Below, piece by piece: positions 1-16,190 of a stretch of DNA of 19,403 nt. The notes beneath the pieces are model-generated. The model was not told where the DNA came from. It did not search any database and was given only the letters and a program-made list of their open reading frames with translations. The DNA comes from Coleofasciculus chthonoplastes F2-STO-03 (GTDB lineage: Bacteria > Cyanobacteriota > Cyanobacteriia > Cyanobacteriales > Coleofasciculaceae). How positions within the stretch are numbered: the first letter of the stretch is position 1; every line of letters starts with the position of its first letter. The position numbers and the translations under genes are program-made. The DNA lies in NCBI GenBank assembly GCA_040222015.1, contig JAVJWO010000177.1:1-19403 (forward strand). The letters are read 5' to 3'.

Positions 1-2
1 AC

Positions 3-810
3 TATTCTCAAGGACGCTACCAGGAAGCAGAACCGCTTTATCTAGACGCTTTAGCACTGAGAAAACGCCTGCTGGGAGAAAATCATCCCGATGTCGCTGC
101 TAGCCTGAATAATTTAGCCGGACTCTACTGTTCTCAAGGACGCTACGACAAAGCTGAACCTTTGGTAATAGAAGCCTTAGCACTGAGAAAACGCCTGCTG
201 GGAGAAAATCATCCCGATGTTGCTGCTAGCCTGAATAATTTAGCAGCACTCTACGATTCTCAAGGACGCTACCAGGAAGCAGAACCGCTTTATCTAGACG
301 CTTTATCACTGAGAAAACGCCTGCTGGGAGAAAATCATCCCGATGTTGCTGCTAGCCTGAATAATTTAGCATTACTCTACGATTCTCAAGGACGCTACCA
401 GGAAGCAGAACCGCTTTATCTAGACGCTTTAGCACTGAGAAAACGCCTGCTGGGAGAAAATCATCCCGATGTCGCTGCTAGCCTGAATAATTTAGCATTA
501 CTCTACAAATCTCAAGAACGCTACCAGGAAGCAGAACCGCTTTATCTAGAAGCTTTAGCACTGAGAAAACGCCTGCTGGGAGAACATCATCCTGATGTTG
601 CTACTAGCCTGAATAATTTAGCAGGACTCTACACATCTCAAGGACGCTACCAGGAATCTGAATCTATTTTTCTAGAAGCTTTAGCCATGAAAAAACGCCT
701 GCTGGGAGAAAATCATCCCTATGTTGCTACTAGCCTGAATAATTTAGCAGGACTCTACTATTCTCAAGGACGCTACGAGGAAGCTGAACCTCTGTATCTA
801 GAGGCTTTAG
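3..810 (+). repeat. Near-identical 126-bp tandem repeats encoding the TPR units
   Basis: 'ctgagaaaacgcctgctgggagaaaatcatcccgatgt' recurs every 126 bp (about 56, 183, 309, 435, 561, 687). Confidence 0.93.
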
Positions 811-908
811 CCATTGCCGATCGCACGTTAGGCTCTAATCATCCCAATACTGTCACTTTCCGTAAGAATCTGCAACTCCTGCGCGATAAATTACGCCATT
901 CTCCCTGA
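3..908 (+). CDS. Tetratricopeptide-repeat protein (42-aa kinesin-light-chain-like TPRs), 5'-partial
   Basis: The frame is open from position 3 (YSQGRYQEAEPLYLDAL...) into the 162..908 ORF. It has about 7 repeats of 'HPDVAASLNNLAxLYxSQGRYQEAEPLYLEALALRKRLLGEN' and a typical 'HPNTVTFRKNL' end. The start lies upstream of the window. Confidence 0.93.
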   Translation, partial: YSQGRYQEAEPLYLDALALRKRLLGENHPDVAASLNNLAGLYCSQGRYDKAEPLVIEALALRKRLLGENHPDVAASLNNLAALYDSQGRYQEAEPLYLDALSLRKRLLGENHPDVAASLNNLALLYDSQGRYQEAEPLYLDALALRKRLLGENHPDVAASLNNLALLYKSQERYQEAEPLYLEALALRKRLLGEHHPDVATSLNNLAGLYTSQGRYQESESIFLEALAMKKRLLGENHPYVATSLNNLAGLYYSQGRYEEAEPLYLEALAIADRTLGSNHPNTVTFRKNLQLLRDKLRHSP

Positions 909-963
909 ATAGGTATTTCAGCCCTTAACAGTACCTAATCTTATAGTGGGAAGGGAGTAAGCT

Positions 964-1010
964 AGTCCGCGCAGGCGGACTTTGTTTGTGTAGCTGCGAC
1001 TTCTAGTCGC
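964..1010. repeat. Double-hairpin short dispersed (REP-like) repeat
   Basis: AGTCCGC-gcag-GCGGACT (964-981), then GTAG and GCGACT-tct-AGTCGC (996-1010), downstream of the TPR gene. It could double as a terminator or RNA-stability hairpin. Confidence 0.6.
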
Positions 1011-1066
1011 CAGGGCAAAAAAGGGGTTCTTCGTTAACGTACCCTAGGAGTTCTGATGGTTGGTTC

Positions 1067-1094
1067 GGTGCGTTACTTCGTTAACGCACCCTAC
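1067..1094 (-). repeat. GTAG-family REP palindrome
   Basis: Minus strand GTAG-GGTGCGTTA-acgaag-TAACGCACC. A degenerate partial copy lies at about 1030-1047 (ttcgttaacgtaccctag). Confidence 0.7.
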
Positions 1095-1204
1095 GAGTTC
1101 ACCAATGGAGTGATTGAAGTGCGATCGCACGTTTCTATTCCAGTCCAATATCCTTCCTTGGTTATCATAAAATCATACAATGTTCGCCCGGTGATAGTAC
1201 GTCT

Positions 1205-1810
1205 ATGACCCAAGCTTCCCTACTTACTTTACCTTCCACTGATCAACGTATTGTCTATTCCAGCATTACCTGGGAACAGTTCAAGCTAATTCAGGCTGGT
1301 TTTACCAACTCTCCGGGTATTCGACTGGCTTACTATAACAGCACGATTGAAATTATTATGCCGGGACGCGAACATGAAATGTTGAGTCGGCTCATCGGCT
1401 TTTTAATCGGGTTATTTTGCCTAGAAAACGCCATTGAATTTGAACCCACGGGTTCCATGACTCAAGAGCGAGAAGGAGTCGTTTCTGCTCAAGCCGATGA
1501 ATCTTACTGTTTTGGTTCATCCAAACCCATTCCCGATCTCGTTATCGAAGTTGTAGTCACCAGTGGGGATACGAACAAACTGAAGCGATATCAGGCATTA
1601 GAAGTACCAGAAGTCTGGTTTTGGCAAGATGGTTTATTTAGCCTCTATCGCCTACGGAATAATCAGTACAAAAAAATTATCCGCAGCGAAATTCCCGAAC
1701 TGGCAACGCTGAGTATTGACTTGCTCACCCGTTGCGTGTTGATGGCTCAGACTTCTCGGTTGGAAGCAGCCAAAGAGTTTCGCAACGCCCTTAAATCGTC
1801 ATCGGCTTAA
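1205..1810 (+). CDS. Uma2-family (PD-(D/E)XK-like) putative endonuclease
   Basis: Typical cyanobacterial Uma2 motifs: ITWEQF, MPGREHE, GSMT, QADESYC, PDLVIEVVVTS, Y..LEVPEVWFW. Confidence 0.9.
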   Translation: MTQASLLTLPSTDQRIVYSSITWEQFKLIQAGFTNSPGIRLAYYNSTIEIIMPGREHEMLSRLIGFLIGLFCLENAIEFEPTGSMTQEREGVVSAQADESYCFGSSKPIPDLVIEVVVTSGDTNKLKRYQALEVPEVWFWQDGLFSLYRLRNNQYKKIIRSEIPELATLSIDLLTRCVLMAQTSRLEAAKEFRNALKSSSA

Positions 1811-2641
1811 CTTTAAAAATTGCCGCACCCCTTGAAGATAAACATCCGGGGCTTCCAACATCGGGAAATGAGCCGTATCAGGAATTTCCCAATACTCCAC
1901 CTTCTCACTCAACGCGGCTGCCCGTTGTCCCAACACAGATGGAATAATCTGATCATATTCCCCTGCCACTAATAACGTTGGTACAGTTAACTGGGCAAAT
2001 TCCGATGGCATCACCTCCGCCGCATACTTACTCACCGACGTTAACATCGTCCCCAATGCAGCATCATAATCCGCTATGATAAAATCTTCTAAAAATGCCC
2101 GACTTATGGTTCCCGGTAGGGGACGATGCAAAAATCGCGCCATAAACAACGCCCCGGCAAAGGGAATGCGTAGAAACCAGCGGGGGCGGTATTTTACCAC
2201 ATAACCGCCAAACTTATGAAAAGCGGCAAAGGATTTTTCCTCGTATTCAAAAATACCGCTACAAGTTAAAATAGCCCGTTCCACTTGCTCCGGATAGCGG
2301 TTGAGAAACATCGTCGCCACAGACGCGCCCAGGGAATGAGCATTTATATAGACGCGATTGAGGGCGAGCATCTCTAACAATATCGCCAAATCTTCGGCAT
2401 AGTCCTCCATTTCATAGAGTAACCCAACCGGTTCTGGGGGAAGTCGCGATCGCCCAAATCCGCGCAAATCGTAAAGCAAACAATTAAACTGATCCGACAG
2501 CGCTTCAGCCGTACTTTGCCAATACCGAGCCGAACCGCCCCAACCATGAATAAACACCATGACAGGCTTATCATCCAAGGGCTGGGACGTAGCCATCCAC
2601 TCGTAGTAATGATCGACGCCGCGAACGTTAACTAGAGGCAT
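1799..2641 (-). CDS. Alpha/beta-fold hydrolase
   Basis: HGWGG oxyanion motif, DLRGFGRS, AHSLG nucleophile elbow, GEYD acid and AHFP His. The 3' end overlaps the convergent Uma2 gene by 12 bp. Confidence 0.92.
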   Translation of the reverse strand: MPLVNVRGVDHYYEWMATSQPLDDKPVMVFIHGWGGSARYWQSTAEALSDQFNCLLYDLRGFGRSRLPPEPVGLLYEMEDYAEDLAILLEMLALNRVYINAHSLGASVATMFLNRYPEQVERAILTCSGIFEYEEKSFAAFHKFGGYVVKYRPRWFLRIPFAGALFMARFLHRPLPGTISRAFLEDFIIADYDAALGTMLTSVSKYAAEVMPSEFAQLTVPTLLVAGEYDQIIPSVLGQRAAALSEKVEYWEIPDTAHFPMLEAPDVYLQGVRQFLKLSR

Positions 2642-2677
2642 TCTTGATTCGTTTCGATACCACCACTGATAACAATA

Positions 2678-4018
2678 TTATGCCGATTCTGGTTTGGGTA
2701 GGGATGACGGATGCAGCAACAATTCCGCTGTCGAGCGTTTCTCTACCATTTCCCGGGTAATCGTACAGCGAGTCACATCCTTGCGCGAGGGCAATTCGTA
2801 CATCACCTCTAGCATCAACTCTTCCACAATACCCCGCAGCGCTCGCGCTCCCGTTTTCCGCCGATAGGCTTCTTGGGCAATGGCTCGCAGCGAGTCTTCG
2901 GTAAACCCAAGCTGCACATTGTCCATCTTCAACAACTTCTGATATTGCTTCACCAAAGCATTGCGCGGCTGGGTCAAAATCGCGATCAGAGCTTCTTCAT
3001 CCAAGGGATCAACCACCGCCGCGATGGGAATACGACCGATAAATTCCGGAATCATCCCGAACTTCACCAAGTCATCGGGTTCTAAATGTCGCAGTAAATC
3101 CGCCGCCCGTTTTTCTTTAGATTGACCTTCTCCCGGCTGGATAAAGCCGATTGAGCGCTTACCAAAACGCTGTTCAATCACCTTCTCTAGACCGACAAAG
3201 GCACCACCACAAATGAATAATATATTACCTGTATCAATCTGAATGCAGTCTTGATAGGGATGCTTTCGTCCGCCCTGAGGTGGCACATTGGCAACGGTTC
3301 CCTCAAGCATCTTCAGTAACGCTTGCTGAACCCCTTCCCCAGAAACATCCCGCGTAATCGAAGGGTTTTCGCTCTTACGGGCAATTTTATCAATTTCATC
3401 GATATAAATAATTCCCCGTTGTGCTTCTTCAACATCCAAATCTGCTACCTGCAACAGCCGTAGTAAGATGTTCTCAACATCTTCACCCACATAACCCGCT
3501 TCCGTCAGCGTTGTCGCATCGGCAACGGCAAAGGGGACATCAAGTACAGCCGCTAAGGTTTGCGCCAGTAAGGTTTTACCACAACCCGTGGGTCCGAGGA
3601 GCAAAATATTCGACTTTTGCAGTTCCACCGGATCATCTGATCCAGCTTTGCCCTTTGCCTTGGCTTCAAGAAAACTTAGGCGCTTATAGTGGTTATAAAC
3701 AGCCACGGAGAGAACTTTTTTCGCATCGTCCTGACCGATGACATGTTCGTCAAGATAGTTTTTCAGTTCCCGAGGTTTAGGAATCTGATTCAGTGACAAA
3801 CCCGAAGCCCGAGTGCGACGTTTTTGTGGGGGTTCTGAGCGGGGAACTTGCTGGGGAGCCGGAGCGCTGGAATCAAGCAACTCCTCATCTAAAATTTCGT
3901 TACATAAATCTACACATTCGTCGCAAATGTAGACTCCCGGTCCCGCAATTAACTTGCGAACCTGCTCTTGAGACTTGCCACAAAATGAACATTTTAGATG
4001 GGAGTCGTATTTAGACAT
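2678..4018 (-). CDS. clpX: ATP-dependent Clp protease ATP-binding subunit ClpX
   Basis: CSFC...CDEC zinc finger, Walker [13 protein letters not shown] pore loop, Walker [12 protein letters not shown] motif, IGF loop and GARALR sensor. Confidence 0.99.
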
Positions 4019-4028
4019 AAGGAGCCTC

Positions 4029-4760
4029 TTACTTAATAGAAGTGACGGTGGCTTCGCTCTTGAGATTCTCTCGCGAGATAACTTGGTCTACTAAACCATA
4101 CTCTTTGGCTTCCGCTGCTGACAGAAAAAAGTCGCGCTCAGTATCCGTGGCGATTCTTTCATAAGGTTGACCCGTATGATACGCCATTAGCTCATTGAGC
4201 TGATTTTTATGATATAAAATTTCCTTCGCTTGGATTTCAATGTCAACGGCTTGTCCTTGGGCGCCACCTAGGGGTTGACTGATCATGATCCGGGCATTGG
4301 GCAGGGACATACGTTTTCCAGGGGTTCCCCCGGTTAGTAGAATCACGCCCATATCCGTCGCCGCACCAAAACATATTGTGACAATATCGGGACGAATCTG
4401 TTGCATTGTATCGTAGATCGCCATTCCCGCAATCACTCCCCCGAGTCCAAGAATGGGACCACCGGGGGAGTGAATGTAAAGCTGGATATCTTTGGTGGGA
4501 TCTTCGGCTTCTAAATACAAAAGCTGGGCAATGATCGAGTCAGCCACTACATCATTGATTCTTGTTCCCAGAAACACAATCCGTTCCCGCAGTAGCCGCG
4601 AGTAGATATCAAACGCCCGTTCCCCGACGCCAGACTGTTCAACCACCATCGGGACGATGTTGCTTGAATTTGAATGACTATTTGTACTAGTACTAACAGA
4701 GTAAATTTCCGGGGAACTCCAGCTTGTAAATGAGTAGTCAGGGAACTGGGATTGCAGCAT
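4029..4760 (-). CDS. clpP: ClpP-family subunit (ClpP2 position) with substituted catalytic Ser and His; predicted inactive
   Basis: VPMVVEQ...[33 protein letters not shown] and ERDFF motifs; lies between tig and clpX. Canonical AASMG reads ATDMG and MIHQP reads MISQP. Confidence 0.95.
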
Positions 4761-4979
4761 AGAACAAGGATTAAAGTATTTGTGTCAACAAGTGAATGGT
4801 TTTCCCGGCAGGTTTGAACACAGATGTTCTCCGGAAGCCTTGGGCGGGAGTTACCCACGTTAACTTCTAGTTACCATTATGCCTTAGCAACATCAATAAG
4901 TGCTGAAGATAGCGATTAAATCTTTTGCCCAAGACTGATCGCTCCTGCTTGTTCTGGGTTAACTCCCCAACCCCCAAGT

Positions 4980-6431
4980 TTATTCGCTCGTTGCCGTTTG
5001 CTCAGAAGCATCAGGGGTGGGTGATGGTTCCTCGCTTTCCTGATCAGCTGTGGCTTCAGGTTGAGCGGTGGTCTCTTCACTTGCCTCAGAGACAGATTCT
5101 GTTTCTTCTGTTTCTAGTGATCCTTCCGGAACCAGTTCAATGGTAGCGTGTTCTTCCAACCATTGAATCGCTTTCTCTTTGAGCAAATCCGACTTGACGA
5201 ACTCCCGCAAGCGTTGTGGATCGACATCTTGCCCTGCCAATTGTTTCATCACTTCCTGACATTTGGCATCCATCTGTTCATCATCCACAGTCAGGGATTC
5301 CCGTTTCGCCAGTTCCTCAAGGGTAAGGGATTGGCGCAGCCGTGCGATCGCATCAGGGCGGGAACGCTGACGCAGTTGGGGCATCATTTCCGCTGTGAAC
5401 ACTTTCTGCAGATCCATCCCATAGTTTTCCATCTGGATCGCCGTCTGGGTTAATATCGTTTGAATTTCCTGCCCAATCAGGGTTTCGGGTAGGTCAATCT
5501 CAACTTGTGCCACCAGCGCTTCGAGCAGAGCATTTTCCTTATTCGTTTTGGTTTCTTGCTCAGCTTTTTCAGCAAATTGTTTTGCCAAGGATTCGCGCAA
5601 TTCGCTGATGGTTTCCTCTTCGCTAATGTCTTGGGCGAAGTCGTCGTCGAGTTCCGGTAACTCTTTTTCCTTGAGTTCTTTGAGGGTAAGGGTAAAGACA
5701 GCACTCTGGTTGGCTAAATCCTCTCGTGGATAATCCTCCGGAAATGTCACCGACACCTCTTTGGTTTCCCCCGGTGTCATGCCCACAATTCCCTGAACAA
5801 TGTCAGCCAGAAACCGTCCTTCTTCGAGTTCTAGCTGAAAGTCAGTCGCCTCACCGCCAGAAATATCAACGGCTTCCTCTCCCTCAGGTGTCAAACGACC
5901 TTTATAATCCACAACGGTCACATCACCCATTTGGGCAGGGCGCGATTCGACGGGAATCAGCGTGGCGTGCTGAACCTGGCGTTCTGCTAAAAAATTATCC
6001 ACCGCGTCAGGATCGGGTTTTACTTCTTCAGCTTGAACACTGAGATTCCCGTAGTCTCCCAAATTGATGTCTGGCGGCACATCCACCGATGCCGAGAATG
6101 TTAACGGTTGTCCCGGCTGGAACTGACTCAGTAGTTCTTCAAATGTGGAAACTAGCTGGTAGTTGCCCAGTGCCTCAATGGTTTCTTGGCTCAGGGCGTC
6201 CCGTAAACTATTTTGTACCAAATCTTCCAGCGCCGCTTCTTTGATCCGTCCAGGACCAAGACGCTGGAGCAAAATTTGACGCGGCACCTTTCCCTTGCGA
6301 AACCCAGGAATGTTGGCAGAGCGGGCAAGATTTTGCACGACCTTCTCGTAGACCTTCTTGGTCGTTTCGGCAGGAATTTCAATTTCCAGACCGAGTTGGC
6401 TCTTGGGGAGTTTTTCCTGAGTAACTTTCAT
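4980..6431 (-). CDS. tig: Trigger factor
   Basis: MKVTQEKLP start, GFRKGKVP ribosome-binding signature, FKBP-like middle domain, acidic tail, and tig-clpP-clpX synteny. Confidence 0.99.
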   Translation of the reverse strand: MKVTQEKLPKSQLGLEIEIPAETTKKVYEKVVQNLARSANIPGFRKGKVPRQILLQRLGPGRIKEAALEDLVQNSLRDALSQETIEALGNYQLVSTFEELLSQFQPGQPLTFSASVDVPPDINLGDYGNLSVQAEEVKPDPDAVDNFLAERQVQHATLIPVESRPAQMGDVTVVDYKGRLTPEGEEAVDISGGEATDFQLELEEGRFLADIVQGIVGMTPGETKEVSVTFPEDYPREDLANQSAVFTLTLKELKEKELPELDDDFAQDISEEETISELRESLAKQFAEKAEQETKTNKENALLEALVAQVEIDLPETLIGQEIQTILTQTAIQMENYGMDLQKVFTAEMMPQLRQRSRPDAIARLRQSLTLEELAKRESLTVDDEQMDAKCQEVMKQLAGQDVDPQRLREFVKSDLLKEKAIQWLEEHATIELVPEGSLETEETESVSEASEETTAQPEATADQESEEPSPTPDASEQTATSE

Positions 6432-6850
6432 CTGTCTTCCCCCGTGGAGGTCTCCACCATAGCTGTACTCAGCTTGGTGGTGGGAGGAAACGGGGGGCAG
6501 ATCTCGACTCCGCTCGATACAAGTGGTCTAGGCAATATATCCATAACTGATTGGTTTTTCAACTGAAATACAGTGCAGGTTTTTTGATGGGAAACCTACA
6601 AAACCAACTCGGATTACTCCGGTAATGTTAGCTTAGACAATGTTAGTGGTCGGTACTTTCTCAAAAGCACTGCCTCCCAGATGACTGTTTAACTTTTGAG
6701 TTTTAGAGCTACAGACTAGCTACGCATCCGTAGGTAAGAACTTAAACACTTGCCACTAACGTAGGCATTCCTGCCTGAGTCGGGTCAACTCGGGCTATCT
6801 TACCAGCCCCCGTTATAATCGGTACTCCGATTTAACGGTGGGTTGTTGAC
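6432..6850 (-). mobile_element. Non-autonomous IS200/IS605 (IscB-type) element with omega-RNA, no tnpA or iscB ORF
   Basis: Two subterminal hairpins share one architecture on the + strand: CCACCA-t-AGCTG-tact-CAGCT-TGGTGG-TGGG (6454-6484) and CCGTTA-t-AATCGG-tact-CCGATT-TAACGG-TGGG (6810-6842). It is flanked by TTCAT (6427-6431) on one side and ends in TTGAC (6846-6850). There are no terminal inverted repeats and no target duplication. Exact ends are inferred. Confidence 0.85.
6608..6850 (-). ncRNA. HEARO / IscB omega-RNA scaffold (orphan)
   Basis: Minus strand reads GTCAACAACCC...GGGGGCT...AGCCCGAGTTGACC...CTACGTT...ACCTACGGATGC..GCTAGTCTGTAGCTCT...GTTAAACAG...GGCAGTG...AACATTGTCTAAGCTAACATTACC, the motif order I recognise for HEARO. 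Visible helices: GTCAAC/GTTGAC (6850-6845 with 6789-6784), GTTAGTGG/CCACTAAC (6760-6753 with 6649-6642), CTCAAAAG/CTTTTGAG (6700-6693 with 6667-6660), and a terminal CGGA-GTAA-TCCG GNRA hairpin. Confidence 0.88.
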
Positions 6851-6875
6851 TGACGCTTGTTTTGGAGACAACTGA

Positions 6876-6881
6876 ATTTTA
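6876..6881 (-). promoter_or_regulatory. Candidate -10 element (TAAAAT) for the omega-RNA/tig transcript
   Basis: TAAAAT on the minus strand, 25 nt upstream of the scaffold start. There is no good -35, so the support is positional only. Confidence 0.3.
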
Positions 6882-7530
6882 GCTCTTTCGGGGGGACGCA
6901 TCACGCTCACTCAACAGTAGAGCGTGAGATGAATAACGAATGATTCAACAGGTTTGTGATCATCGAGTTCTTTTAGAGGGTAATCCAAACACCTCATGAT
7001 ATGCTAGTCTAAACAACGAGTTATTTTGATTTCTAGTCATTGTTTCAGGGTATAAAAGAGACATAGATTGAATCGGTCGGGCGGGGTTTCCGTATCTGAT
7101 GATAGTACATTCAGAGCGTCTACAGCAGCGAATCTACCCCTAAACCAGCTAGGCTAGGCAAAAGGTTTCCACTGTCGAAGCCAGGAGAACTCGAACCGCC
7201 TGTTCTAGCAGACGTAGCCAACTACGTCTAGAAGCCGGGATATGAATTGATCTGCCTACTCATCAACTCTGAACGAGAACTGTTATCGTTAATTTGTCCC
7301 GTTAAGGGCAAGCCGACGGTAATATCTCAGTCAATTGGCGCGACTATCGGTCTGTCGTGTTATCACAAGACAAGAATCGCCTTTGTGCAAATCTTATGGA
7401 TTTTGTCAGAATATAGATTACATATTTCCCTTAAATAATGTTTTAAGATTAAGAAAATTTAATTGTTTTTTTTGCTACGTTAAGTCACTGTCCACAGAAT
7501 CGATGTGTTAAAAAATTGGAGGTAGATCGT

Positions 7531-8574
7531 TTGTCTAGTCAAGTTCGTGTTGCTATACTGGGCGCAACGGGTGCAGTCGGCGCCGAGTTACTGGAATTAT
7601 TAGAAAGCCGAAACTTTCCCCTTACCCAGTTAAAGCTTTTAGCCTCACCCCGTTCGGCGGGACGGACTCTCCAGTTTCGAGGCGAATCCCTACCGGTGGA
7701 AGCCGTGGGGGAGGATTCGTTTAAAGAGGTGGATTTGGTTTTAGCCTCTGCTGGGGGTTCAACTTCTAAAGCTTGGGCATCTAAAGCGGTGGAGCAGGGA
7801 GCTGTGGTGGTTGACAATTCCAGCGCTTTTCGCATGAATCCTGACGTCCCCCTGGTGATTCCTGAGGTTAATCCGGAAGCGGCGGCGAAGCATAAAGGGA
7901 TTATCGCCAATCCCAACTGCACGACGATATTAATGGCAGTAGCCGTTTGGCCCCTGCATCGGGTGCAACCCATTCAACGGATTATCGTCGCTACCTATCA
8001 ATCAGCTAGCGGTGCAGGTAGGCGGGCGATGGAAGAACTCAAAGCCCAAGCTCAAGCCATTTTGCAGGAGCAAACGCCACCAACGGAAAGCTTTCCCTAC
8101 CCCTTGGCGTTTAACCTATTCCCGCACAATTCTCCGTTAAATGATCAGGGATACTGTGAGGAAGAGATGAAAATGGTCAACGAAACCCGTAAGATTTTCG
8201 ATGATCCCCAGATCCGCATCAGTGCCACTTGTGTTCGAGTTCCTGTGCTGCGAGCTCACTCGGAAGCGATTAATCTAGAGTTTGCTCAACCCATGTCTGT
8301 CGCCACAGCCAAGGAGTTACTTGCCAATGCACCAGGAGTGCGACTGGTTGAAGATTGGCAGGCGAATTATTTCCCCATGCCGATAGATGCTACGGGTAAG
8401 GACGATGTACTGGTGGGGCGAATTCGACAAGACTTGTCTCATCCCAGTGGATTAGAGATTTGGTTGAGTGGTGACCAAATTCGCAAAGGGGCAGCGTTGA
8501 ATGCTGTACAAATTGCCGAGTTGTTGGTGGAACGAAATTGGTTAAAGCCAGCAACAGCAATGATGGCTTATTAA
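7531..8574 (+). CDS. asd: Aspartate-semialdehyde dehydrogenase
   Basis: GATGAVG dinucleotide motif, DNSSAFRM, NPNCTT catalytic Cys, QSASGAG, RAHSE, KGAALNAVQ. Start moved from 7516 to the in-frame TTG at 7531 because GGAGG (7518-7522) lies 8 nt upstream. Confidence 0.98.
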   Translation: MSSQVRVAILGATGAVGAELLELLESRNFPLTQLKLLASPRSAGRTLQFRGESLPVEAVGEDSFKEVDLVLASAGGSTSKAWASKAVEQGAVVVDNSSAFRMNPDVPLVIPEVNPEAAAKHKGIIANPNCTTILMAVAVWPLHRVQPIQRIIVATYQSASGAGRRAMEELKAQAQAILQEQTPPTESFPYPLAFNLFPHNSPLNDQGYCEEEMKMVNETRKIFDDPQIRISATCVRVPVLRAHSEAINLEFAQPMSVATAKELLANAPGVRLVEDWQANYFPMPIDATGKDDVLVGRIRQDLSHPSGLEIWLSGDQIRKGAALNAVQIAELLVERNWLKPATAMMAY

Positions 8575-8667
8575 TTTGTCATTGGTCTTATGTCCTTTGT
8601 TCTATCCTGTGGCAAAGCTGTTGTGTGTCTATTGTCGTTAGTTCAGAGTTGATTTTAGCTCTATCCC

Positions 8668-8723
8668 TAATGACTAATAACCAATGACCAATGACCAATG
8701 ACCAATGACCAATGACTAACGAC
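8668..8723. repeat. STRR2-type heptamer tandem array
   Basis: Eight units of (C/T)AATGAC consensus, the reverse complement of a TTGGTCA-type repeat. Degenerate opposite-orientation units lie at about 8576-8600 (ttgtcattggtcttatgtcctttgt). Confidence 0.85.
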
Positions 8724-8743
8724 CAAATAGGAGTGAAATAAGG

Positions 8744-9628
8744 GTGGTCAATTTTGGACGTGTATTAACGGCAATGATTACGCCGTTTAAAGAAGACGGC
8801 AGTGTGAATTATCAGGTTGCTGAGAAATTAGCGGCTCATTTAGTGGAACAGGGTACCGATACCGTCGTCGTCTGTGGTACAACGGGTGAATCACCGACAC
8901 TGACATGGGATGAAGAGTCTCAGTTATTTCAGGTCGTGCAGAAAGCGGTGGCGGGAAAAGCCAAGGTAATTGCTGGCACAGGGTCAAATTCTACCCAAGA
9001 AGCGATCTCAGCCACCCAAAAAGTCGCTAAACTAGGGGTAGATGGTTCATTACAAGTTGTTCCCTATTACAATAAACCCCCCCAAGAGGGACTCTATAAT
9101 CATTTCCAGGCAATTGCCAAATCCAGCCCTGACTTGCCTGTGATGCTCTACAATGTACCAACGCGCACGGGTCAAAACCTCCAACCGGAAACCGTTGCCC
9201 GTTTAGCGGAAATTCCCAATATTGTAGCGATTAAAGAGGCGAGTGGTAGCTTCGATCAAGGCAGTCAAGTACGGCGTCTGACGCCACCGGATTTTGCCAT
9301 TTACTCAGGAGAAGATTCCTTTACCCTAGCCTTATTAGCATTGGGGGCAACCGGAGTCGTCAGTGTTTCCTCCCATCTCGTTGGTCTAGAACTCCGGCAG
9401 ATGATCCAGGCTTTCCAAGCGGGTCAAATTGACCTAGCCAGAGACATTCACTTAAAGCTTTTTCCTTTATTTAAAGTCTTGTTTTGTACTGCCAATCCTA
9501 TTCCACTCAAAGCCGCATTAAAACTTCAAGGATGGGACGTCGGTTCACCCCGTCCACCCTTGAGTGAGCTGCCGATGGAATTGGAACAACAAGTCAAGAC
9601 GGTTCTCCAAGACCTTTCTTTACTTTAA
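8744..9628 (+). CDS. dapA: 4-hydroxy-tetrahydrodipicolinate synthase
   Basis: [36 protein letters not shown] Schiff-base Lys and NPIPLK. GTG start with GGAG at 8730-8733. Confidence 0.98.
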
Positions 9629-10155
9629 ATTGTCATCAATGTTGTTGATGTAGATGTATAGGAGAGTTAAATTTCCCGTCAAATAAATACAACGAAACAT
9701 TTATCTATGAACTACTCTTGATTTTTGGGCTAAATTAGCCTATTGTCTGTTCCTTGCCCATTGAGGTGCTAGAGAGATAATTTATCGATGATTCCATAGT
9801 TTTTATCGATAAACTCTAGAAACCAGCTCAGTTTTTTAATAAAACTTGTGAATCAAGTTGAATTAATGACAGCAGGCATTGAGCCAAGGATACCATTTTG
9901 AATGGTAACCTCGTGTTCTTTATTGTCTGGATTTTTATAGCCGTTCTTAATGATGGATCACATCTTATGTTTTTTCTTTCCGATAGGTTCACTGATAACT
10001 CAAATAAGAAAAGCTACCATTTCTGACCAAGTTGAGTTAGTCTAGATTAAATAAGACAAGTTTATCGCCCAGAAAATATTTCCTAAGAAATGGCAATTTT
10101 CAATTCAGGTTTAACGTTGTAATTAATGAGTAATAGAACTCTCAAAGGAGGCAAA

Positions 10156-11919
10156 TTGACTAGCAAAAAATCTTCACCCGCTCTAAAAATTATTCCCTTA
10201 GGTGGGCTGCATGAAATTGGCAAAAATACCTGCATTTTCGAGTTCAACGACGAGATTATTCTCTTGGATGCAGGATTAGGATTTCCTAATGATGAAATGC
10301 ACGGGGTTAATATCGTTCTGCCCGACATGACCTATTTGCGGGAAAATCGCCATAAAATCAAGGGTATGATTGTCACTCATGGTCACGAAGATCATATTGG
10401 TGGACTTCCCTATCACTTGAAGCAATTCGATATTCCCGTCATTCACGGACCTAGACTGGCGATGGCGCTGCTGAAAGGCAAACTGGAGGAGGCTGGAGTT
10501 AGCGATCGCACCAAGTTAAATTCCGTGAGTCCTCGCGACATGGTGCGGATTGGCTCGTCCTTTATGGTCGAATATATCCGCAACACTCACTCTATTGCCG
10601 ATAGTTTTACCGTAGCGATTCACACACCCATTGGCGTCGTTGTCCACACCGGAGACTTCAAAGTCGATCATACCCCGGTCGATGGTGAATACTTTGATTT
10701 TCAACGATTAGCCGAACACGGGGAAAAAGGTGTCCTTTGTCTCCTCAGCGATTCCACCAACGCCGAAGTTCCCGGACACACCCCGTCTGAAGCGTCTGTT
10801 TATCCCAATCTGGATCGTATTTTCTCCCAAGCACCGGGACGAATATTGGTCACCACATTCGCCTCATCAGTTCATCGAGTGCAACTGATCTTAGATCTGG
10901 CACAAAAACAAAACCGTGTAGTGTCTGTTGTCGGGCGCTCCATGCTCAATGTTATTGCCCAAGCTCGTAATCTGGGGTATATAAAATGTCCCGATAGCTT
11001 ATTTGAGCCACTCCACGCCGCGAATAGTTTACCCCCAGAAAAAGTATTAATTTTAACCACTGGGTCTCAAGGTGAACCTTTAGCTGCACTCACCCGGATT
11101 TCCAAAGGGGAACACCGGAAACTGAAAATTCAAGAGGGTGACACGGTAGTCTTCTCCGCCAATCCCATTCCCGGTAATACGATCGCGGTTGTCAATACCA
11201 TTGATCGCCTAATGATGCAAGGGGCAAACGTGATCTATGGACGCCATCAAGGGATTCACGTTTCCGGTCATGGCGCTCAAGAAGATCATAAACTAATGCT
11301 CGCCTTAACCCGACCCAAGTTTTTCATGCCCGTTCACGGGGAACATCGGATGCTGATCCAACATGGCAAAATGGCACAAAAGATGGGTATCCCGGCGGAA
11401 AATATCGTGATTACCAATAACGGGGATATGGTGGAATTAACCGAGAATAGCATTAGTGTTGTCGGTCAAGTCCCCTCCGGTATTGAGTTAGTCGATCGCT
11501 CCGGTATCGTACATCATGAAGTCCTCAAAGAACGTCAGCAGTTAGCGGGAGACGGTGTAGTAACTGTCGCCGCCGCCGTGAGTTGGGAGGGTAAACTCCT
11601 TGCCCAACCCGAAATTCACCTGCGGGGTGTCGTGGCTAGTGTGGAGAAATCCCTACTCCAGCAGTTAGTAATTAAGCGGATTGAGCGGACATTGAGTGAG
11701 CAGTGGACAGACTTTGCCAAATCCTTAGATGGCAAAAAACAACCAGAAGTTGACTGGACAGGATTGCAACAGAAAATTGAGGGGGATTTAGAACGGTTAA
11801 CTCGCCGCGAACTGCAAAGCCGTCCTCTAGTGGTATTCTTACTGCAAAATCCAGAGGAAGCCCCTGTGAAAAGGGTAGGACGTCGTCGCCAGCGCACTGC
11901 AGCTCAGGCGGCTTCTTAG
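10156..11919 (+). CDS. rnj: Ribonuclease J
   Basis: PLGGLHEIGKN, HGHEDH metallo-beta-lactamase motif, HTGDFK, DSTNA, TGSQGEP, HVSGHG, PVHGE. The TTG at 10156 is preferred (GGAGG at 10147-10151); ATG 10126 is an in-frame alternative. Confidence 0.98.
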   Translation: MTSKKSSPALKIIPLGGLHEIGKNTCIFEFNDEIILLDAGLGFPNDEMHGVNIVLPDMTYLRENRHKIKGMIVTHGHEDHIGGLPYHLKQFDIPVIHGPRLAMALLKGKLEEAGVSDRTKLNSVSPRDMVRIGSSFMVEYIRNTHSIADSFTVAIHTPIGVVVHTGDFKVDHTPVDGEYFDFQRLAEHGEKGVLCLLSDSTNAEVPGHTPSEASVYPNLDRIFSQAPGRILVTTFASSVHRVQLILDLAQKQNRVVSVVGRSMLNVIAQARNLGYIKCPDSLFEPLHAANSLPPEKVLILTTGSQGEPLAALTRISKGEHRKLKIQEGDTVVFSANPIPGNTIAVVNTIDRLMMQGANVIYGRHQGIHVSGHGAQEDHKLMLALTRPKFFMPVHGEHRMLIQHGKMAQKMGIPAENIVITNNGDMVELTENSISVVGQVPSGIELVDRSGIVHHEVLKERQQLAGDGVVTVAAAVSWEGKLLAQPEIHLRGVVASVEKSLLQQLVIKRIERTLSEQWTDFAKSLDGKKQPEVDWTGLQQKIEGDLERLTRRELQSRPLVVFLLQNPEEAPVKRVGRRRQRTAAQAAS

Positions 11920-11930
11920 ATTATTTCGGC

Positions 11931-11960
11931 TGTAGAGACGTACTATGGTACGTCTCTACA
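11931..11960. repeat. Perfect GTAG-type REP palindrome, possible terminator or stability hairpin after rnj
   Basis: TGTAGAGACGTAC-tatg-GTACGTCTCTACA, a 13-bp stem 11 nt after the rnj stop. Confidence 0.8.
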
Positions 11961-12001
11961 ATGTTGATAGGATGCCATCAAATCTTATTGTTTTTTAGTT
12001 T

Positions 12002-12030
12002 GTAGGTTGGGTTGACGCAGGAAACCCAAC
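12002..12030 (+). repeat. GTAG-family REP palindrome
   Basis: GTAG-GTTGGGTT-gacgcagga-AACCCAAC. Confidence 0.7.
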
Positions 12031-12134
12031 TTATTCTTTTTATAATCTTGATTTTCCTCACATCAAGTCAATTGATATCGTGTCCGGTTGAAGACCCATA
12101 GTCTAGAGATAAAATTTTACAGGAGGACTACATT

Positions 12135-12617
12135 ATGAAAAATTTATATACATATTTATTGGCAACTATTTTAGGTGCTGTTGTTGCTTTTTCCGGAATA
12201 AATAGTCCTGCTAAAAGTCAAGTATTCTTTAATATTCAAGATATAAATTTTAAAATTTACGATAATCAAAATGACATTCTAGTAGAAGAGCAAACGAATG
12301 CTTATGGACTTGGAATGAATATTTTTATGTCGATTCTTATCAACCAAAATGCAGAATCAGGTGTTACTTATTCTATTACTGTTGAAGGATATGGTGAAGG
12401 AAGAGAGAATCTAGCTGAAGGTTTAGTTGAAGACTACACAATACAGGAAAATAAAGAAGTTACGCTTTATTATAAAACTAGCCAGTATATTCCTTTTATA
12501 ATAGAGTATCCATGTACAGAAGAAACAACCTACACTATAACAGTTGTTCAGAAAGGTACCGATAATAGAGTGACAGAAACGATTCAATCACCTCATAGCT
12601 TTTGTATTTTAAATTAA
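12135..12617 (+). CDS. Hypothetical exported protein (AT-rich gene)
   Basis: Strong SD AGGAGG (12121-12126) and a signal-peptide-like N-terminus (MKNLYTYLLATILGAVVAFSGINSPAKSQ). No family recognised. Confidence 0.8.
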   Translation: MKNLYTYLLATILGAVVAFSGINSPAKSQVFFNIQDINFKIYDNQNDILVEEQTNAYGLGMNIFMSILINQNAESGVTYSITVEGYGEGRENLAEGLVEDYTIQENKEVTLYYKTSQYIPFIIEYPCTEETTYTITVVQKGTDNRVTETIQSPHSFCILN

Positions 12618-12663
12618 AACCTCTCTCTCCAAAACCAATTTACCAGCCTATAGCGTTTTCAAA

Positions 12664-13363
12664 TCAATCATGAAACCCAACCCTAGTTCCTAATAACACA
12701 AAAAATGGTGCTACTGACGGGTTAGAAGGATAAGTCTGACCATCAAACTGCATTCGTGCGTAGTACAGTTTTTGCGTATAATCATCACCCTGGCGCACTG
12801 TTTTAGAATACGGGAAAACTATATCATTCCATCCATTTGTGCGCTGATTAGTCACTAGGATAGGAGACGGACTTACAGTCATTTCTGTCACTAACCGATA
12901 ATCTTGACCATCTTGAGTAAAAATCAAGGTATTACAGCCTCCCGAACCACAAGTATATTTTCCCACTAAATAAACTATAGCTTCCGGCTGTTTATCACCA
13001 TTAATATCAACGAAGTTATAGGAGTAGCGGCTATAGTCATCCGGCTCAACCCGTTTCGCATAATCGGGCATCGTTTGTAAAATAGCTTGTTCTAGCTGTG
13101 GGTTTGGTTCGGTTTCAGATAGGAGATACTGAATTTCTCCTATTTTTACATCGTCTGTGTCCTGTAGAGGGTCGCTTAAGGCTTGCATTTGAGTGTTACT
13201 ATCGAAACTGGAAGCAAAATTATCCTGACTTTCTTCTGTTTTAAATGGGCTACTTAACGTTGGAGTTGACGTAGGTATTTGAGCCGATAAAACCCAGTTT
13301 TCTTAATATCTGGGTGATTACCAACAGAACCGAAACACTTGGAATACACCAGCTTTTGCTCAT
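12664..13363 (-). pseudogene. Frameshifted exported protein (DxNGD...CGSGGC type)
   Basis: The 12664..13188 ORF (VDINGDKQPEAIVY, CGSGGC, TNGWNDI, YPSNPS) stays open upstream to 13302 (ENWVLSAQIPTSTPTLSS...). ATG 13363 gives MSKSWCIPSVSVLLVITQIL in a frame offset by 1 nt. Joined, they form a plausible signal peptide. Confidence 0.6.
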
Positions 13364-13502
13364 CTGAAGTTTACAGAACGTGCAAAATTCGCGTTGAAAC
13401 TTCACTAAACCTTTACGGACATTCATCCGGTATGAATGCCAGAGTAATTGTAGGTTGATAACAAGTGGTTTAGTTGGTTTGTTGCTAGCACAGGAAAGAT
13501 TT

Positions 13503-13871
13503 ATGAGTGTATCTGATTTTACAGCAAAGAAACTGATTTTTACGAAATGGGTTTGGATAGAGCCAAAACAGCCGTCCTCAACTCCAATCCAACCTCCCCA
13601 ACCGAAACCAGGATTCGATTTGCTCAAACCCATTAAACGGTGGATTGATGGGGTTGAAGTAAACAATCCCCAACTGGCGCACTTGATCTGCCATCTGATC
13701 CCCGCCCAATGTCCCTTTGAGCGCGACATTAAACTATTTGGGCATACCCTGTTTCACATTCCCCCCTTGTGTAAGCTGAATCCCTTCTATGAGGAAGTAG
13801 TCGGGTTACGCTTCCGGGCGTTGTGCTATTTAGCCGATGAATGTGGTGAAGATATTTCCGCTTACTGCTAA
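13503..13871 (+). CDS. 'Mo-dependent nitrogenase C-terminal' domain protein (cyanobacterial, function unknown)
   Basis: LIPAQCPFERDIKLFG...HIPPLCKLNPFYEEVVGLRFRALCYLADECGED signature. ATG 13503 is preceded by AGGAAAG. Confidence 0.9.
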   Translation: MSVSDFTAKKLIFTKWVWIEPKQPSSTPIQPPQPKPGFDLLKPIKRWIDGVEVNNPQLAHLICHLIPAQCPFERDIKLFGHTLFHIPPLCKLNPFYEEVVGLRFRALCYLADECGEDISAYC

Positions 13872-13879
13872 AATTCCAG

Positions 13880-14023
13880 ATGGAACGCCCCGATTTACCG
13901 GGACAGTTTCCCTTTGAGGTTCCCCAGCACCAGCAGCTCTTATTTCGCCGCCCTGAGGATTTACAAAAGACCCTACCTGTGGTATTAGAAACATTACTGC
14001 AACGGTTTAATTTATGGACGTGA
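13880..14023 (+). CDS. 47-aa ORF, possibly a C-terminal gene remnant
   Basis: My translation is MERPDLPGQFPFEVPQHQQLLFRRPEDLQKTLPVVLETLLQRFNLWT*. It has protein-like composition, fills the gap between two co-oriented genes and has no clear SD. Confidence 0.45.
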   Translation: MERPDLPGQFPFEVPQHQQLLFRRPEDLQKTLPVVLETLLQRFNLWT

Positions 14024-14076
14024 TTTATCCCTCATCGTCACAGATAATAATTGGGATGGATTGAGGAGAAAATTTT

Positions 14077-14328
14077 ATGCCTAGAACTCCAGATGAGTTT
14101 GCCGTTCACATTCTTATGGCTGGCGGTCACCGGGAAGAGGTGCGTTTTACCACGATTCAAGAGTTTCAGAAATGGTACAGTGGTGAACTCGTACCCAAAT
14201 CTGAGTCTAAGGACTTTATCAACGTCCCGATTAAAAATATTCAGGGCGAATATATGGTGATACGCCCTTCCAGCGTTTTAGCGATTCGGGTGGAACCCAT
14301 CTTCGGGGGTAGCGTCGAGCGATTTTAG
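14077..14328 (+). CDS. Small hypothetical protein (83 aa)
   Basis: SD GAGGAG at 14063-14068, ATG start, globular-looking sequence, co-oriented upstream of mltA. Confidence 0.85.
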   Translation: MPRTPDEFAVHILMAGGHREEVRFTTIQEFQKWYSGELVPKSESKDFINVPIKNIQGEYMVIRPSSVLAIRVEPIFGGSVERF

Positions 14329-14337
14329 GATGAAGTC

Positions 14338-14387
14338 TTTTGTCATTGGTCATTGGTACAACATCCAATGGCTAATGATTAATGATA
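14338..14387. repeat. Short inverted STRR2-like heptamer cluster
   Basis: tttgtcattggtcattgg followed by ccaatggctaatgattaatgat; the two halves can pair as a hairpin. Confidence 0.55.
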
Positions 14388-14409
14388 CGACGTCAAAGTT
14401 TGGACAAGC

Positions 14410-15588
14410 ATGAGAAAACAACTGACGAGTCTCTCCCTGAGTTTAGGGATATTGTTATTCAGTGGCAGTAGTTTGGCTGTTCCTGATGTTCCCTTAGAAC
14501 GAATCAATCCCGATACCTCATCGGTGACACTGAACTCACTGGGGTTTGATCAGCAACTCTGGGGGACTCCTGAACAACCTGGCGATCGGCAAGCCTTACT
14601 TAAGTCGATTGACCATAGCCTGCGCTATCTGGCGACGCCGACAGCAGCCGCCGCCTACCAAAACTATTCCATCCCCGGAATAACCTTGGAACGAGTGCGC
14701 CGTTCTCTGGTGCGATTTCGTCAACTTCTGCTCACATCCAATTCCCCGGCTGAACTGCAAGCGGCGGTAAATCGCGAGTTTGAGGTTTATCAGTCGGTGG
14801 GAAATGATGATCAGGGAACGGTTTTATTTACGGGGTACTTTGAACCCATTTATGCAGCGAGTCGTACCCCTAGTGCCGAGTATCGCTATCCCCTGTACCG
14901 TTTACCGACAAACTTTAATACCTGGAAAACCCCTCACCCAACTCGCGCTGATTTAGAAGGCGTGGATGGGTTTGGTGAAAATAGTCCCCTGAATGGGTTA
15001 GAACTCGTCTGGTTGCGCGATCGCCTCCAGGCGTTTTTGATTCATGTTCAGGGTTCTGCCCGGTTGCAATTGCCCGATGGGAGTGTGATGAGTGTTGGGT
15101 ATGCGGGGAAGACTGATTATCCTTACACCAGTGTGGGGCGAGAATTGGTCAAAGATGGCAAGTTGCCTCTGGAAGGGTTAACCTTACCCGTGTTACTTGA
15201 TTATTTCAGTCAATTTCCCAGTGAACTGGATCAGTATTTACCTCGGAATCAAAGTTTTGTCTTCTTCCGAGAAACCAATGGCGCACCCGCTACCGGAAGC
15301 CTAGGTGTGCCTGTGACAGCCGAGCGATCGATTGCTACGGATAAATCTTTAATGCCTCCAGGGGCGTTGGCGTTGATTCAAACTCGGATTCCCTATCCTA
15401 ATGCTCAAGGACAACTGGAATCGCGGTGGGTGAGTCGCTATGTTCTAGATCAAGATACAGGAAGTGCGATTAAAGGACCCGGACGAGTGGATATCTTTAT
15501 GGGGACAGGAGTTTTGGCGGGCGATCGCGCTGGCGTCATTGGCGGGAATGGAAACCTGTACTATTTATTGCTGAAGGATTCCAGATGA
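14410..15588 (+). CDS. mltA: Murein lytic transglycosylase A family protein
   Basis: FTGYFEP, FLIHVQGSARL, YTSVGRELV, N.SFVFF, RSIATD, and 3D-domain DQDTGSAIKGPGRVDIFMGTG. N-terminal signal peptide. Confidence 0.95.
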   Translation: MRKQLTSLSLSLGILLFSGSSLAVPDVPLERINPDTSSVTLNSLGFDQQLWGTPEQPGDRQALLKSIDHSLRYLATPTAAAAYQNYSIPGITLERVRRSLVRFRQLLLTSNSPAELQAAVNREFEVYQSVGNDDQGTVLFTGYFEPIYAASRTPSAEYRYPLYRLPTNFNTWKTPHPTRADLEGVDGFGENSPLNGLELVWLRDRLQAFLIHVQGSARLQLPDGSVMSVGYAGKTDYPYTSVGRELVKDGKLPLEGLTLPVLLDYFSQFPSELDQYLPRNQSFVFFRETNGAPATGSLGVPVTAERSIATDKSLMPPGALALIQTRIPYPNAQGQLESRWVSRYVLDQDTGSAIKGPGRVDIFMGTGVLAGDRAGVIGGNGNLYYLLLKDSR

Positions 15589-15598
15589 TTGGAGATTT

Positions 15599-15969
15599 AG
15601 GGCGACCCGACCTAATTAAATGGAGTGGTGTTGTCAATTAAATCAAGCGGGTCATTCCTACAGGAGGATGATCGGGGTTTTGACTTTGGTCTTAGGGATG
15701 CACCCAAGGTTTGCGATCGCCTCACCTTATTATCCCGATATTATCCCGATCTGGAGACGCGATCGCACATCCATTAAACCTCAATAACTGGGCTAGGACA
15801 GGGCGACCCGACCTAATTAAATGGAGTGGTGTTGTCAATTAAATCAAGCGGGTCGCCCCTACGGGAGGATGATCGGGGTTTTGGCTTTGGTCTTAGGGAT
15901 GCACCCAAGGTTTGCGATCTCCTCACCTTATTATCCCGATATTATCCCGATCTGGAGACGCGATCGCAC
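15599..15969. repeat. Direct duplication of a 170-bp non-coding module (15599-15768 and 15800-15969)
   Basis: Six mismatches by manual alignment, with a 31-bp spacer. Each copy has a REP-like GGGCGACCCG...CGGGTCGCCC-CTAC stem (damaged in copy 1), TTATCCCGAT x2 and HIP1 sites. Confidence 0.92.
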
Positions 15970-15994
15970 TACAATGGGGCTAAGATAAATTGAT

Positions 15995-16054
15995 GTAGGG
16001 GCGGGTTTCACGATTACCGTTTTTGACCTCACCCCAATGCAACTAAACCCGCCC
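15995..16054 (+). repeat. GTAG-family REP with long loop
   Basis: GTAG-GGGCGGGTTT...AAACCCGCCC. Confidence 0.7.
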
Positions 16055-16190
16055 TGACTAAGGTAACAGGGGGTAATCAAGGCGGATTTGATAGAATCTG
16101 ATCCATCAGTATCCTGCGATCGCACACCCTTTAAACCCACTCAACTCAATCAGCCATTTCCGATTAAAAGTTCCCCCAAAACCTGGTAGA

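Follow-up and report, generated by a model that had tools for sequence, protein, structure and literature searches.

The DNA analysed here, called the window, is a stretch of 19,403 nucleotides (nt) from the cyanobacterium Coleofasciculus chthonoplastes F2-STO-03 (NCBI GenBank assembly GCA_040222015.1, contig JAVJWO010000177.1, positions 1 to 19,403 of the forward strand), whose genome is referred to as G000. The minus strand of the window carries tig, the gene for trigger factor, and immediately before its start codon (6431-6429) lies an insertion of 419 nt (6432-6850, minus strand) that contains no open reading frame (ORF) and includes the omega-RNA scaffold of an IscB nuclease. Palindrome-associated elements that lack genes are known in the IS200/IS605 superfamily as PATEs, and the insertion is a PATE-like, non-autonomous ISC element of that superfamily which has been internally deleted, has no iscB, and has kept its scaffold and both of its ends; this identity, and the insertion history that goes with it, are regarded as practically certain. 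The favoured reading of the locus as a whole, to which a probability of about 0.7 is given, is that the element entered an N/ATGA target (the slash marks the junction, here and below) and is maintained by an IscB that acts in trans and uses its guide RNA.

Read on the minus strand, the locus passes from the end of the tig leader, ...GTCTCCAAAACAAGCGTCA (6869-6851), through the element, GTCAACAACC...GGGGGAAGACAG (6850-6432), to the beginning of tig, ATGAAAGTT (from 6431); the four bases next to the element, which make up the target, are the tig start codon plus one base, and are also the predicted target-adjacent motif (TAM). The parts are listed in Table 1. The product of tig has the domains Trigger_N, FKBP_C, and Trigger_C, and position 1 of the Trigger_N profile aligns to residue 1.

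Table 1. Features of the tig locus in minus-strand order; positions are those of the window.
Feature	Position	Strand	Content or basis
Candidate guide-encoding flank	6851..6869	-	Final 19 nt of the native tig leader, abutting the 5' side of the omega-RNA scaffold
IscB omega-RNA scaffold (HEARO, RF02033)	6622..6850	-	Rfam cmscan; the end called RE (right end) in IS605 nomenclature
Gene-less middle segment	6501..6621	-	iscB remnant, 24-nt motif, promoter-like site
Conserved 3' terminal 69 nt	6432..6500	-	Imperfect subterminal palindrome (IS605 LE, left end); ends ...GGGGGAAGACAG
Target site and predicted TAM, ATGA(A)	6427..6431	-	tig start codon and first two bases of codon 2; outside the element
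tig (trigger factor)	4980..6431	-	Intact ORF of 483 amino acids (aa); ORF list, Pfam

The scaffold is the sole Rfam match in the window, covering positions 1-211 of the 211 in the HEARO model with 126.8 bits where the gathering score is 83, and is 82% identical to the omega-RNA that precedes an intact IscB on contig C77 of the same genome, which itself scores 130.5 bits. Compensatory changes, with at least one double change, are present in 24 of 53 consensus pairs among the nine omega-RNA rows aligned for this clade (one row, L028, lay on the wrong strand and was counted as broken). Copies of HEARO without an ORF were reportedly already noted by Weinberg et al. in 2009, in an account said to concern the RNA family only and to be silent on target site and guide logic.

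The ORF list has no iscB directly downstream of the scaffold. In the middle segment, the 116 nt that follow the omega-RNA resemble the first and last few codons of iscB; translated and set beside full-length relatives, this remnant of about 30 codons starts ...VFV... and ends ...GY.YA-stop. A promoter-like site, TTGAAA-17-TATATT (6562-6534, minus strand, 10 of 12 matches), points at tig from about 100 nt before the ATG. Both scans made here stayed at chance level, the promoter scan with 2 sites where shuffling gives 2.2, and the terminator scan likewise. The 24-nt motif (6501-6524) recurs without change at C178:124804, C93:35557, and C20:22989 and in several congeners; elsewhere the 24-mer lies within a different small palindromic repeat (...ACCGAGCG[24-mer]AAGCCGAGGTG...).

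In the related genomes G004, G013, and G049, IscB-encoding elements of 1.6 kb have 3' ends that match the terminal 69 nt at 88-90% identity, and the terminal hairpin is present in the predicted fold of the tig element. Its 17-nt loop (aagctgagtacagctat, 6459-6475, minus strand) occurs as the exact reverse complement in the orthologous insertion of G002 (L046/L066) and in the sequencing run X2, the short segment between the inverted arms CCACCA/TGGTGG having been inverted. With 1.6-kb IscB-encoding elements of G004, G013, G026, and G049 the mini-element shares its first 233 nt as well as its last 69 nt, and it is therefore an internal-deletion derivative; a BLAST search of G000 with its 3' 190 nt for a parent returned only a sibling. 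This sibling, on C178, is 97% identical, has the same two end bases and unrelated flanks, and is followed by ATGAAT.

Family members share the 5' terminus GTCAAC... and are bounded by such termini and a subterminal palindrome in place of terminal inverted repeats; scaffolds uniformly start GTCA(A/G)..ACC, and the sequence that precedes them varies from copy to copy. G000 has 35 HEARO matches, 26 of them above the cut-off, and a near-full-length iscB frame (379-467 aa) comes after only 6 of the 35, a broken frame after 4 more. Matches to RRXRR, the IscB N-terminus, number 18 (11 in frames of at least 350 aa), those to the Y1 transposase (Y1_Tnp) 17, and those to the TnpB zinc ribbon 75. One HEARO group, starting CGTGCAGAC..., lies at or near contig ends (C169:11-178, C16:11-178, C57:9-200, C1:11-236, C63 from 36668, and C33 from 42250; two above the cut-off and four below) and has the appearance of a distinct high-copy repeat at which the assembly breaks.

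Empty alleles and the ATGA target

Positions 6100-7250 were compared by BLAST with 40 relatives. Five genomes (G001, G003, G005, G006, and G007) gave abutting matches to query positions 1-400 and 820-1151, and G008 gave the same arrangement with query positions 363-400 and 820-1151. The empty junction, ...ccaaaacaagcgtca/ATGAAAGTT (equivalent to ...caag(c/t)gtca/ATGAAAGTT), is thus present in six of eight congeners, three of the six having single substitutions, and in all six the 6851-6869 flank is contiguous with ATGAAAGTT. The insertion is shared by G002, at 98% identity, and in G004 the element is absent from tig by BLAST coordinates alone. The six empty alleles leave both boundaries unambiguous to the base and show no target duplication. 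The original prediction, made from the letters of the window, that a minus-strand element at 6432-6850 runs straight into the ATGAA of tig is therefore correct to the base, and the element-free allele that it expected, with the leader directly followed by ATGAAA, exists. That ATGA(A) might belong to the element as a carried start codon is ruled out by its presence in the empty alleles; the TCA found 5' of both mini-element copies was likewise rejected as an element part or second target, being present in the empty alleles, while the 5' flanks of other copies are unrelated.

The site is also polymorphic among close strains. The joint of 6431 to 6851, which skips the 419 nt, is found on contigs of two RNA-library runs, X4 and X16. 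Across the flanks 6000-6431 and 6851-7191 (773 nt), the empty run X4 differs from the window at 6 letters and the filled, G002-like run X2 at 12, so that the empty strain is at least as close to the window as the filled one; this is a weak hint that the element at tig may have been recently gained or seamlessly lost. The DNA run X1 holds the filled form in pieces, and X2 holds the G002-like form.

Two further insertions were resolved in the same manner. The element on C77 (1,667 nt, IscB-bearing) sits on the ATGA start codon of a gene for a PAS protein; its homologous end was recognized by eye and the boundary then confirmed by empty sites, ...ctgcatcaa/ATGAATCAGGG, read directly in G005 and G007, with abutting matches also in G001 and G002. 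At clpR, the empty allele ...ggatc/ATGAAACGACCG occurs in G005, G006, and G007. The insertions at tig, clpR, and C77 all lie next to a 4-nt target without duplicating it. A copy of the C77 IscB element, 96% identical, lies at G003:C211:38462-40133, about 8 kb from the empty tig locus on the same contig, and in G001 (C9, L105) a truncated element remains before clpR.

The motif that follows the element holds across two subfamilies. For subfamily A, to which the tig element belongs, a 69-nt end probe found 17 ends in the 18 given loci, every one followed by ATGA, and the eighteenth locus, the diverged C77 element, ends ...GAGGAAGAAAG/ATGAAT, bringing the total to 18 of 18. Subfamily B, which begins GTCAGGAACC... 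and ends ...CTTACCAACCCCAATTTTCG, is followed by ATGA at all 12 of its ends in G000 and at 27 of 30 across the genus; of the three exceptions, two correspond to ATGA sites in orthologous copies and differ from them by a single base. The counts of 18/18 and 12/12 exclude chance. An empty junction of another form, or a sibling end lacking ATGA, would have spoken against the identity of the element; neither was found. In orthologous pairs (L139 versus L140; L134 versus C95 of G000) the ATGA has changed by one base after insertion, to ATTA and ATGG. Other IscB subfamilies (from C31:40609, C193:38381, and C170:51899) have ends that lack a following ATGA, as in ...GCCGCATT/TAAGG, which makes the motif a property of subfamilies A and B; these other subfamilies were left out of the counts, and several target or TAM specificities coexist in one genome. 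The C31 copy seemingly lies inside a TIR-like ORF, not in a leader.

Start codons and short sense leaders

An ATG at the target was called a start codon when it opens an ORF of at least 70 aa, ORF length standing in where Pfam is silent, and orthologous sites were merged into independent insertions (L067+L081; L073+L091; L120+L129+L121; L123+L127; L132+L145; L140+L139; and L126, probably with L141 too, +L147; L066 of G002 was counted with the tig insertion of the window). On this basis 9 of the 16 independent subfamily A insertions are on a start codon. Besides tig, the genes concerned encode the PAS protein of C77, a PP2C protein, proteins of 229 and 74 aa, an old-yellow-enzyme homologue (Pfam profile from residue 6), a response regulator (receiver domain from residue 13), an AAA_23/SMC-like ATPase (profile from residue 1-5), and a PstS-like lipoprotein with a signal peptide. 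In subfamily B, 7 of the 12 ends in G000 fall on such an ATG, among them those at clpR and at a psbN-like ORF (C48), whose true start may lie 12 nt beyond the B-type end; four precede a co-oriented gene by 14-79 nt (rpsO, an aminotransferase gene, an SDR gene, and a 711-aa ORF) and one lies elsewhere. Across the genus, subfamily B has about 23 independent sites, of which 11 (ORFs of at least 70 aa) to 14 (at least 60 aa) are on ORF starts. With some 50 independent insertions in the two subfamilies, about half are exactly on start codons and most others are in short sense leaders. One of these neighbours, an ORF-less omega-RNA element at G000:C215:33427-33937, lies 14 nt upstream of rpsO, and the hosts of ORF-less omega-RNA elements include highly expressed small genes (rpsO, psbN-like).

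Whether this is more than the ATGA motif alone would produce depends on the sites taken to be available, and these were counted with crude ORF-based gene calls of G000 (5,491 genes, 78% of the genome), to which observed counts pooled from several genomes were compared. G000 has 67,767 ATGA sites, with 2,395 at gene starts, 48,929 inside genes, and 16,443 intergenic, 3,103 of the last lying no more than 100 nt upstream of a co-oriented gene. If all sites are open, the expected start share is 3.5% (binomial p 1e-16 for the observed 16/28); with non-coding and start sites only, it is 12.7% (p 3e-8), which makes the excess about 4-fold over random use of non-coding ATGA sites; with start sites and sense leaders of up to 100 nt, it rises to 43.6% (p 0.1). 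Eleven of the 12 subfamily B ends in G000 are at a start or in a sense leader of up to 100 nt (in fact within 80 nt), where 29% would be expected (p 1e-5). Short sense-strand leaders are thus where the elements gather, and within them an ATGA target by itself would put about half of the insertions on the start codon. The excess at start codons that had been predicted is therefore present, and a preference for short leaders on the sense strand describes it best. No paper linking the ATGA target to start codons was found in a search at the level of listings and abstracts, and in the available text of Kapitonov (2016; PMC4810608) the phrase "start codon" occurs 0 times.

Such a preference could arise at insertion, with no contribution from IscB, if the Y1 transposase favours single-stranded DNA near active promoters and starts. 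IS200/IS605 transposases do act on single-stranded DNA (Kapitonov, 2016, in the available discussion; PMC4810608), the excess concerns the sense orientation in leaders, and Meers (2023), in the part available, allows both routes in the words "preferentially generated or preferentially retained." Biased insertion and selective retention are, however, not mutually exclusive and are equally compatible with the data here, and the shared orientation of element and gene, which follows from reading ATGA on the coding strand, argues for neither. As an account of the pattern that dispenses with the nuclease, insertion bias is possible and is held to be rather doubtful.

A candidate guide in the tig leader

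An IscB omega-RNA takes as its guide the sequence 5' of the scaffold, and the TAM is found on the other side, 3' of the element, so that guide and TAM together spell the empty site, or donor joint. At tig, the leader (6851-6869) followed by ATGA is exactly the empty allele, as the original prediction had it; once the element is in place the leader runs into GTCA instead of ATGA, and the occupied locus is consequently not a target. The functional guide would be approximately the last 16-20 nt of the flank. The most suitable partner is probably the 428-aa IscB of C77, which combines RRXRR (248 bits) with HNH, matches solved IscB structures (E 1e-26 to 4e-40), and is encoded next to a related omega-RNA in an element that is itself flanked by ATGAAT.

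The events envisaged under the favoured reading are as follows. A Y1 TnpA would have mobilized the tig element in trans, and the tig promoter would now transcribe leader and scaffold together. An IscB made elsewhere, for example that of C77, would load this RNA and cut element-free copies of the locus, which repair from an occupied chromosome copy would convert to the filled state; on the assumptions that the host is polyploid and that the element spreads across its chromosome copies, the insertion could thus be retained. The habit of landing on start codons would have two sources: many ATGA sites are provided by start codons, and copies persist only in short sense leaders, where no ORF would be broken and a host promoter would transcribe the guide. 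For the narrower proposition that the element yields a working guide RNA with an IscB in trans, judged from sequence, the odds are put at about even.

Several observations weigh against this reading. None of the 17 Y1_Tnp matches is tied to element ends. The C77 omega-RNA, at the identity given above, is the nearest that is linked to an IscB, and cross-loading is assumed. No excised or mixed alleles were present in the contigs of DNA run X1, although contigs drop rare variants, and the RNA-library contigs that match the locus carry the empty allele only, although contigs cannot show transcription. The enrichment is measured against crude gene calls from a single genome with pooled counts, and the start-codon share fits a model of tolerated sites plus leaders without any nuclease activity. 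Finally, the mini-element is present in just two copies in G000.

Some of these points also suit the view that the insertion is an inert, decaying relic on which neither nuclease nor transposase acts, insertions in leaders being harmless and those in genes purged. Only a remnant of iscB is left inside it, its copies in G000 are few, decay is visible in relatives (ATTA and ATGG for ATGA, and the truncated clpR copy of G001), and the start-codon share is compatible with pure tolerance if short leaders alone are tolerated. Against this, the score of the omega-RNA is on a par with that of IscB-linked copies, neither end is damaged, filled and empty alleles occur among very close strains (the 6 and 12 letters of X4 and X2), and tolerance would have to exclude most intergenic DNA to produce the approximately 4-fold excess (p about 3e-8). 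The relic is accordingly considered unlikely. That the element has instead been co-opted as a leader, supplying tig with a ribosome-binding site or promoter or letting IscB on the 5' untranslated region modulate translation, is very improbable: a purine run, GGGGGAAG, does lie 5-12 nt before the ATG (cousins have AAGGAGG there), where the native leader, ...AAAACAAGCGTCA, has none, and the promoter-like site points at tig, but six congeners and close environmental strains manage without the element, the promoter match is at chance level, subfamily B ends ...CCCCAATTTTCG with no purine run, and the run at tig is the foot of the terminal palindrome, so that its conservation requires no translational role.

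The interest of the locus is twofold. It is a very clean natural example of a donor joint, in which filled allele, empty allele, guide, and TAM can all be read from genomes, and the pattern of starts and leaders links target motif, host transcription, and element survival in a simple rule that can be tested; the family-wide pattern merits a proper census. If an IscB does maintain such sites in trans, polyploid cyanobacteria have housekeeping genes whose 5' leaders are guarded by a nuclease, which would be of relevance to gene expression and to the use of IscBs as tools. A bolder and distinctly speculative extension is that omega-RNA mini-elements with an ATGA target constitute a guild of start-codon dockers, which use the promoter of the host gene as their promoter and its leader as their guide, that one IscB made elsewhere polices dozens of sites in a polyploid cell as a within-cell drive, and that IscB occupancy of the mRNA start could tune the translation of tig and clpR.

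Comparison with known systems

The element type, the N/ATGA target (Kapitonov, 2016), and the logic of the donor joint (Meers, 2023) have already been published, as far as the available parts of these papers show, and targeting of the element-free allele, being the published IscB/TnpB model (Meers, 2023), is not a new idea. ATGA-type TAMs, which the original prediction took as known, do have a measured precedent, although the example that it named, AwaIscB, was not confirmed. In the available sections of Hirano et al. (2022; PMC9581776), the OMEGA nickase DtIsrB has a measured TAM of NTGA and is active on ATGA, which makes an ATGA TAM plausible for the family of the tig element. DtIsrB is a distant relative from a thermophile and an IsrB without HNH, whereas ATGA as the TAM of the G000 IscBs is a prediction.

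The closest functional parallel is provided by the IscB elements of Geobacillus stearothermophilus and their PATE-like derivatives (Meers, 2023; bioRxiv 10.1101/2023.03.14.532601). In the available parts of that work, the scaffold derives from the transposon end and the guide lies outside the transposon, 5' of the scaffold, so that transcription has to enter from outside; the orientation of IscB elements tends to follow that of host genes; derivatives without an ORF encode omega-RNAs, for which a nuclease has to be supplied in trans; and the nuclease cuts the donor joint, after which recombination restores the element. The tig element has the same layout of scaffold, guide, and TAM. The model was demonstrated by experiment in G. 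stearothermophilus, whereas for the tig element it is drawn from the sequence, and TAM and host differ; exact docking on start codons is not described for the G. stearothermophilus elements in the same parts of that study.

In structure and target, the nearest counterpart is ISC1-1_MA of Microcystis aeruginosa, as far as it is described in the available text of Kapitonov (2016; PMC4810608), where N/ATGA is given as the site at which cyanobacterial ISC elements with the termini GTCA... and ...CG insert. The tig element differs in having no nuclease gene and a length of 419 nt, compared with 1.3-1.7 kb for elements of the ISC1-1_MA type, and the IscB of its full-length relatives has HNH, which the form encoded by ISC1 elements lacks. 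ISC transposons such as ISC1-1_MA are mobilized in trans by Y1 transposases, as would hold for the tig element too. Both have a cyanobacterial host, a 5' end of GTCA..., and subterminal palindromes; ISC1-1_MA likewise lies directly upstream of ATGA without target duplication, as proven by empty sites, and its ...CG/ATGA junction is shared by subfamily B.

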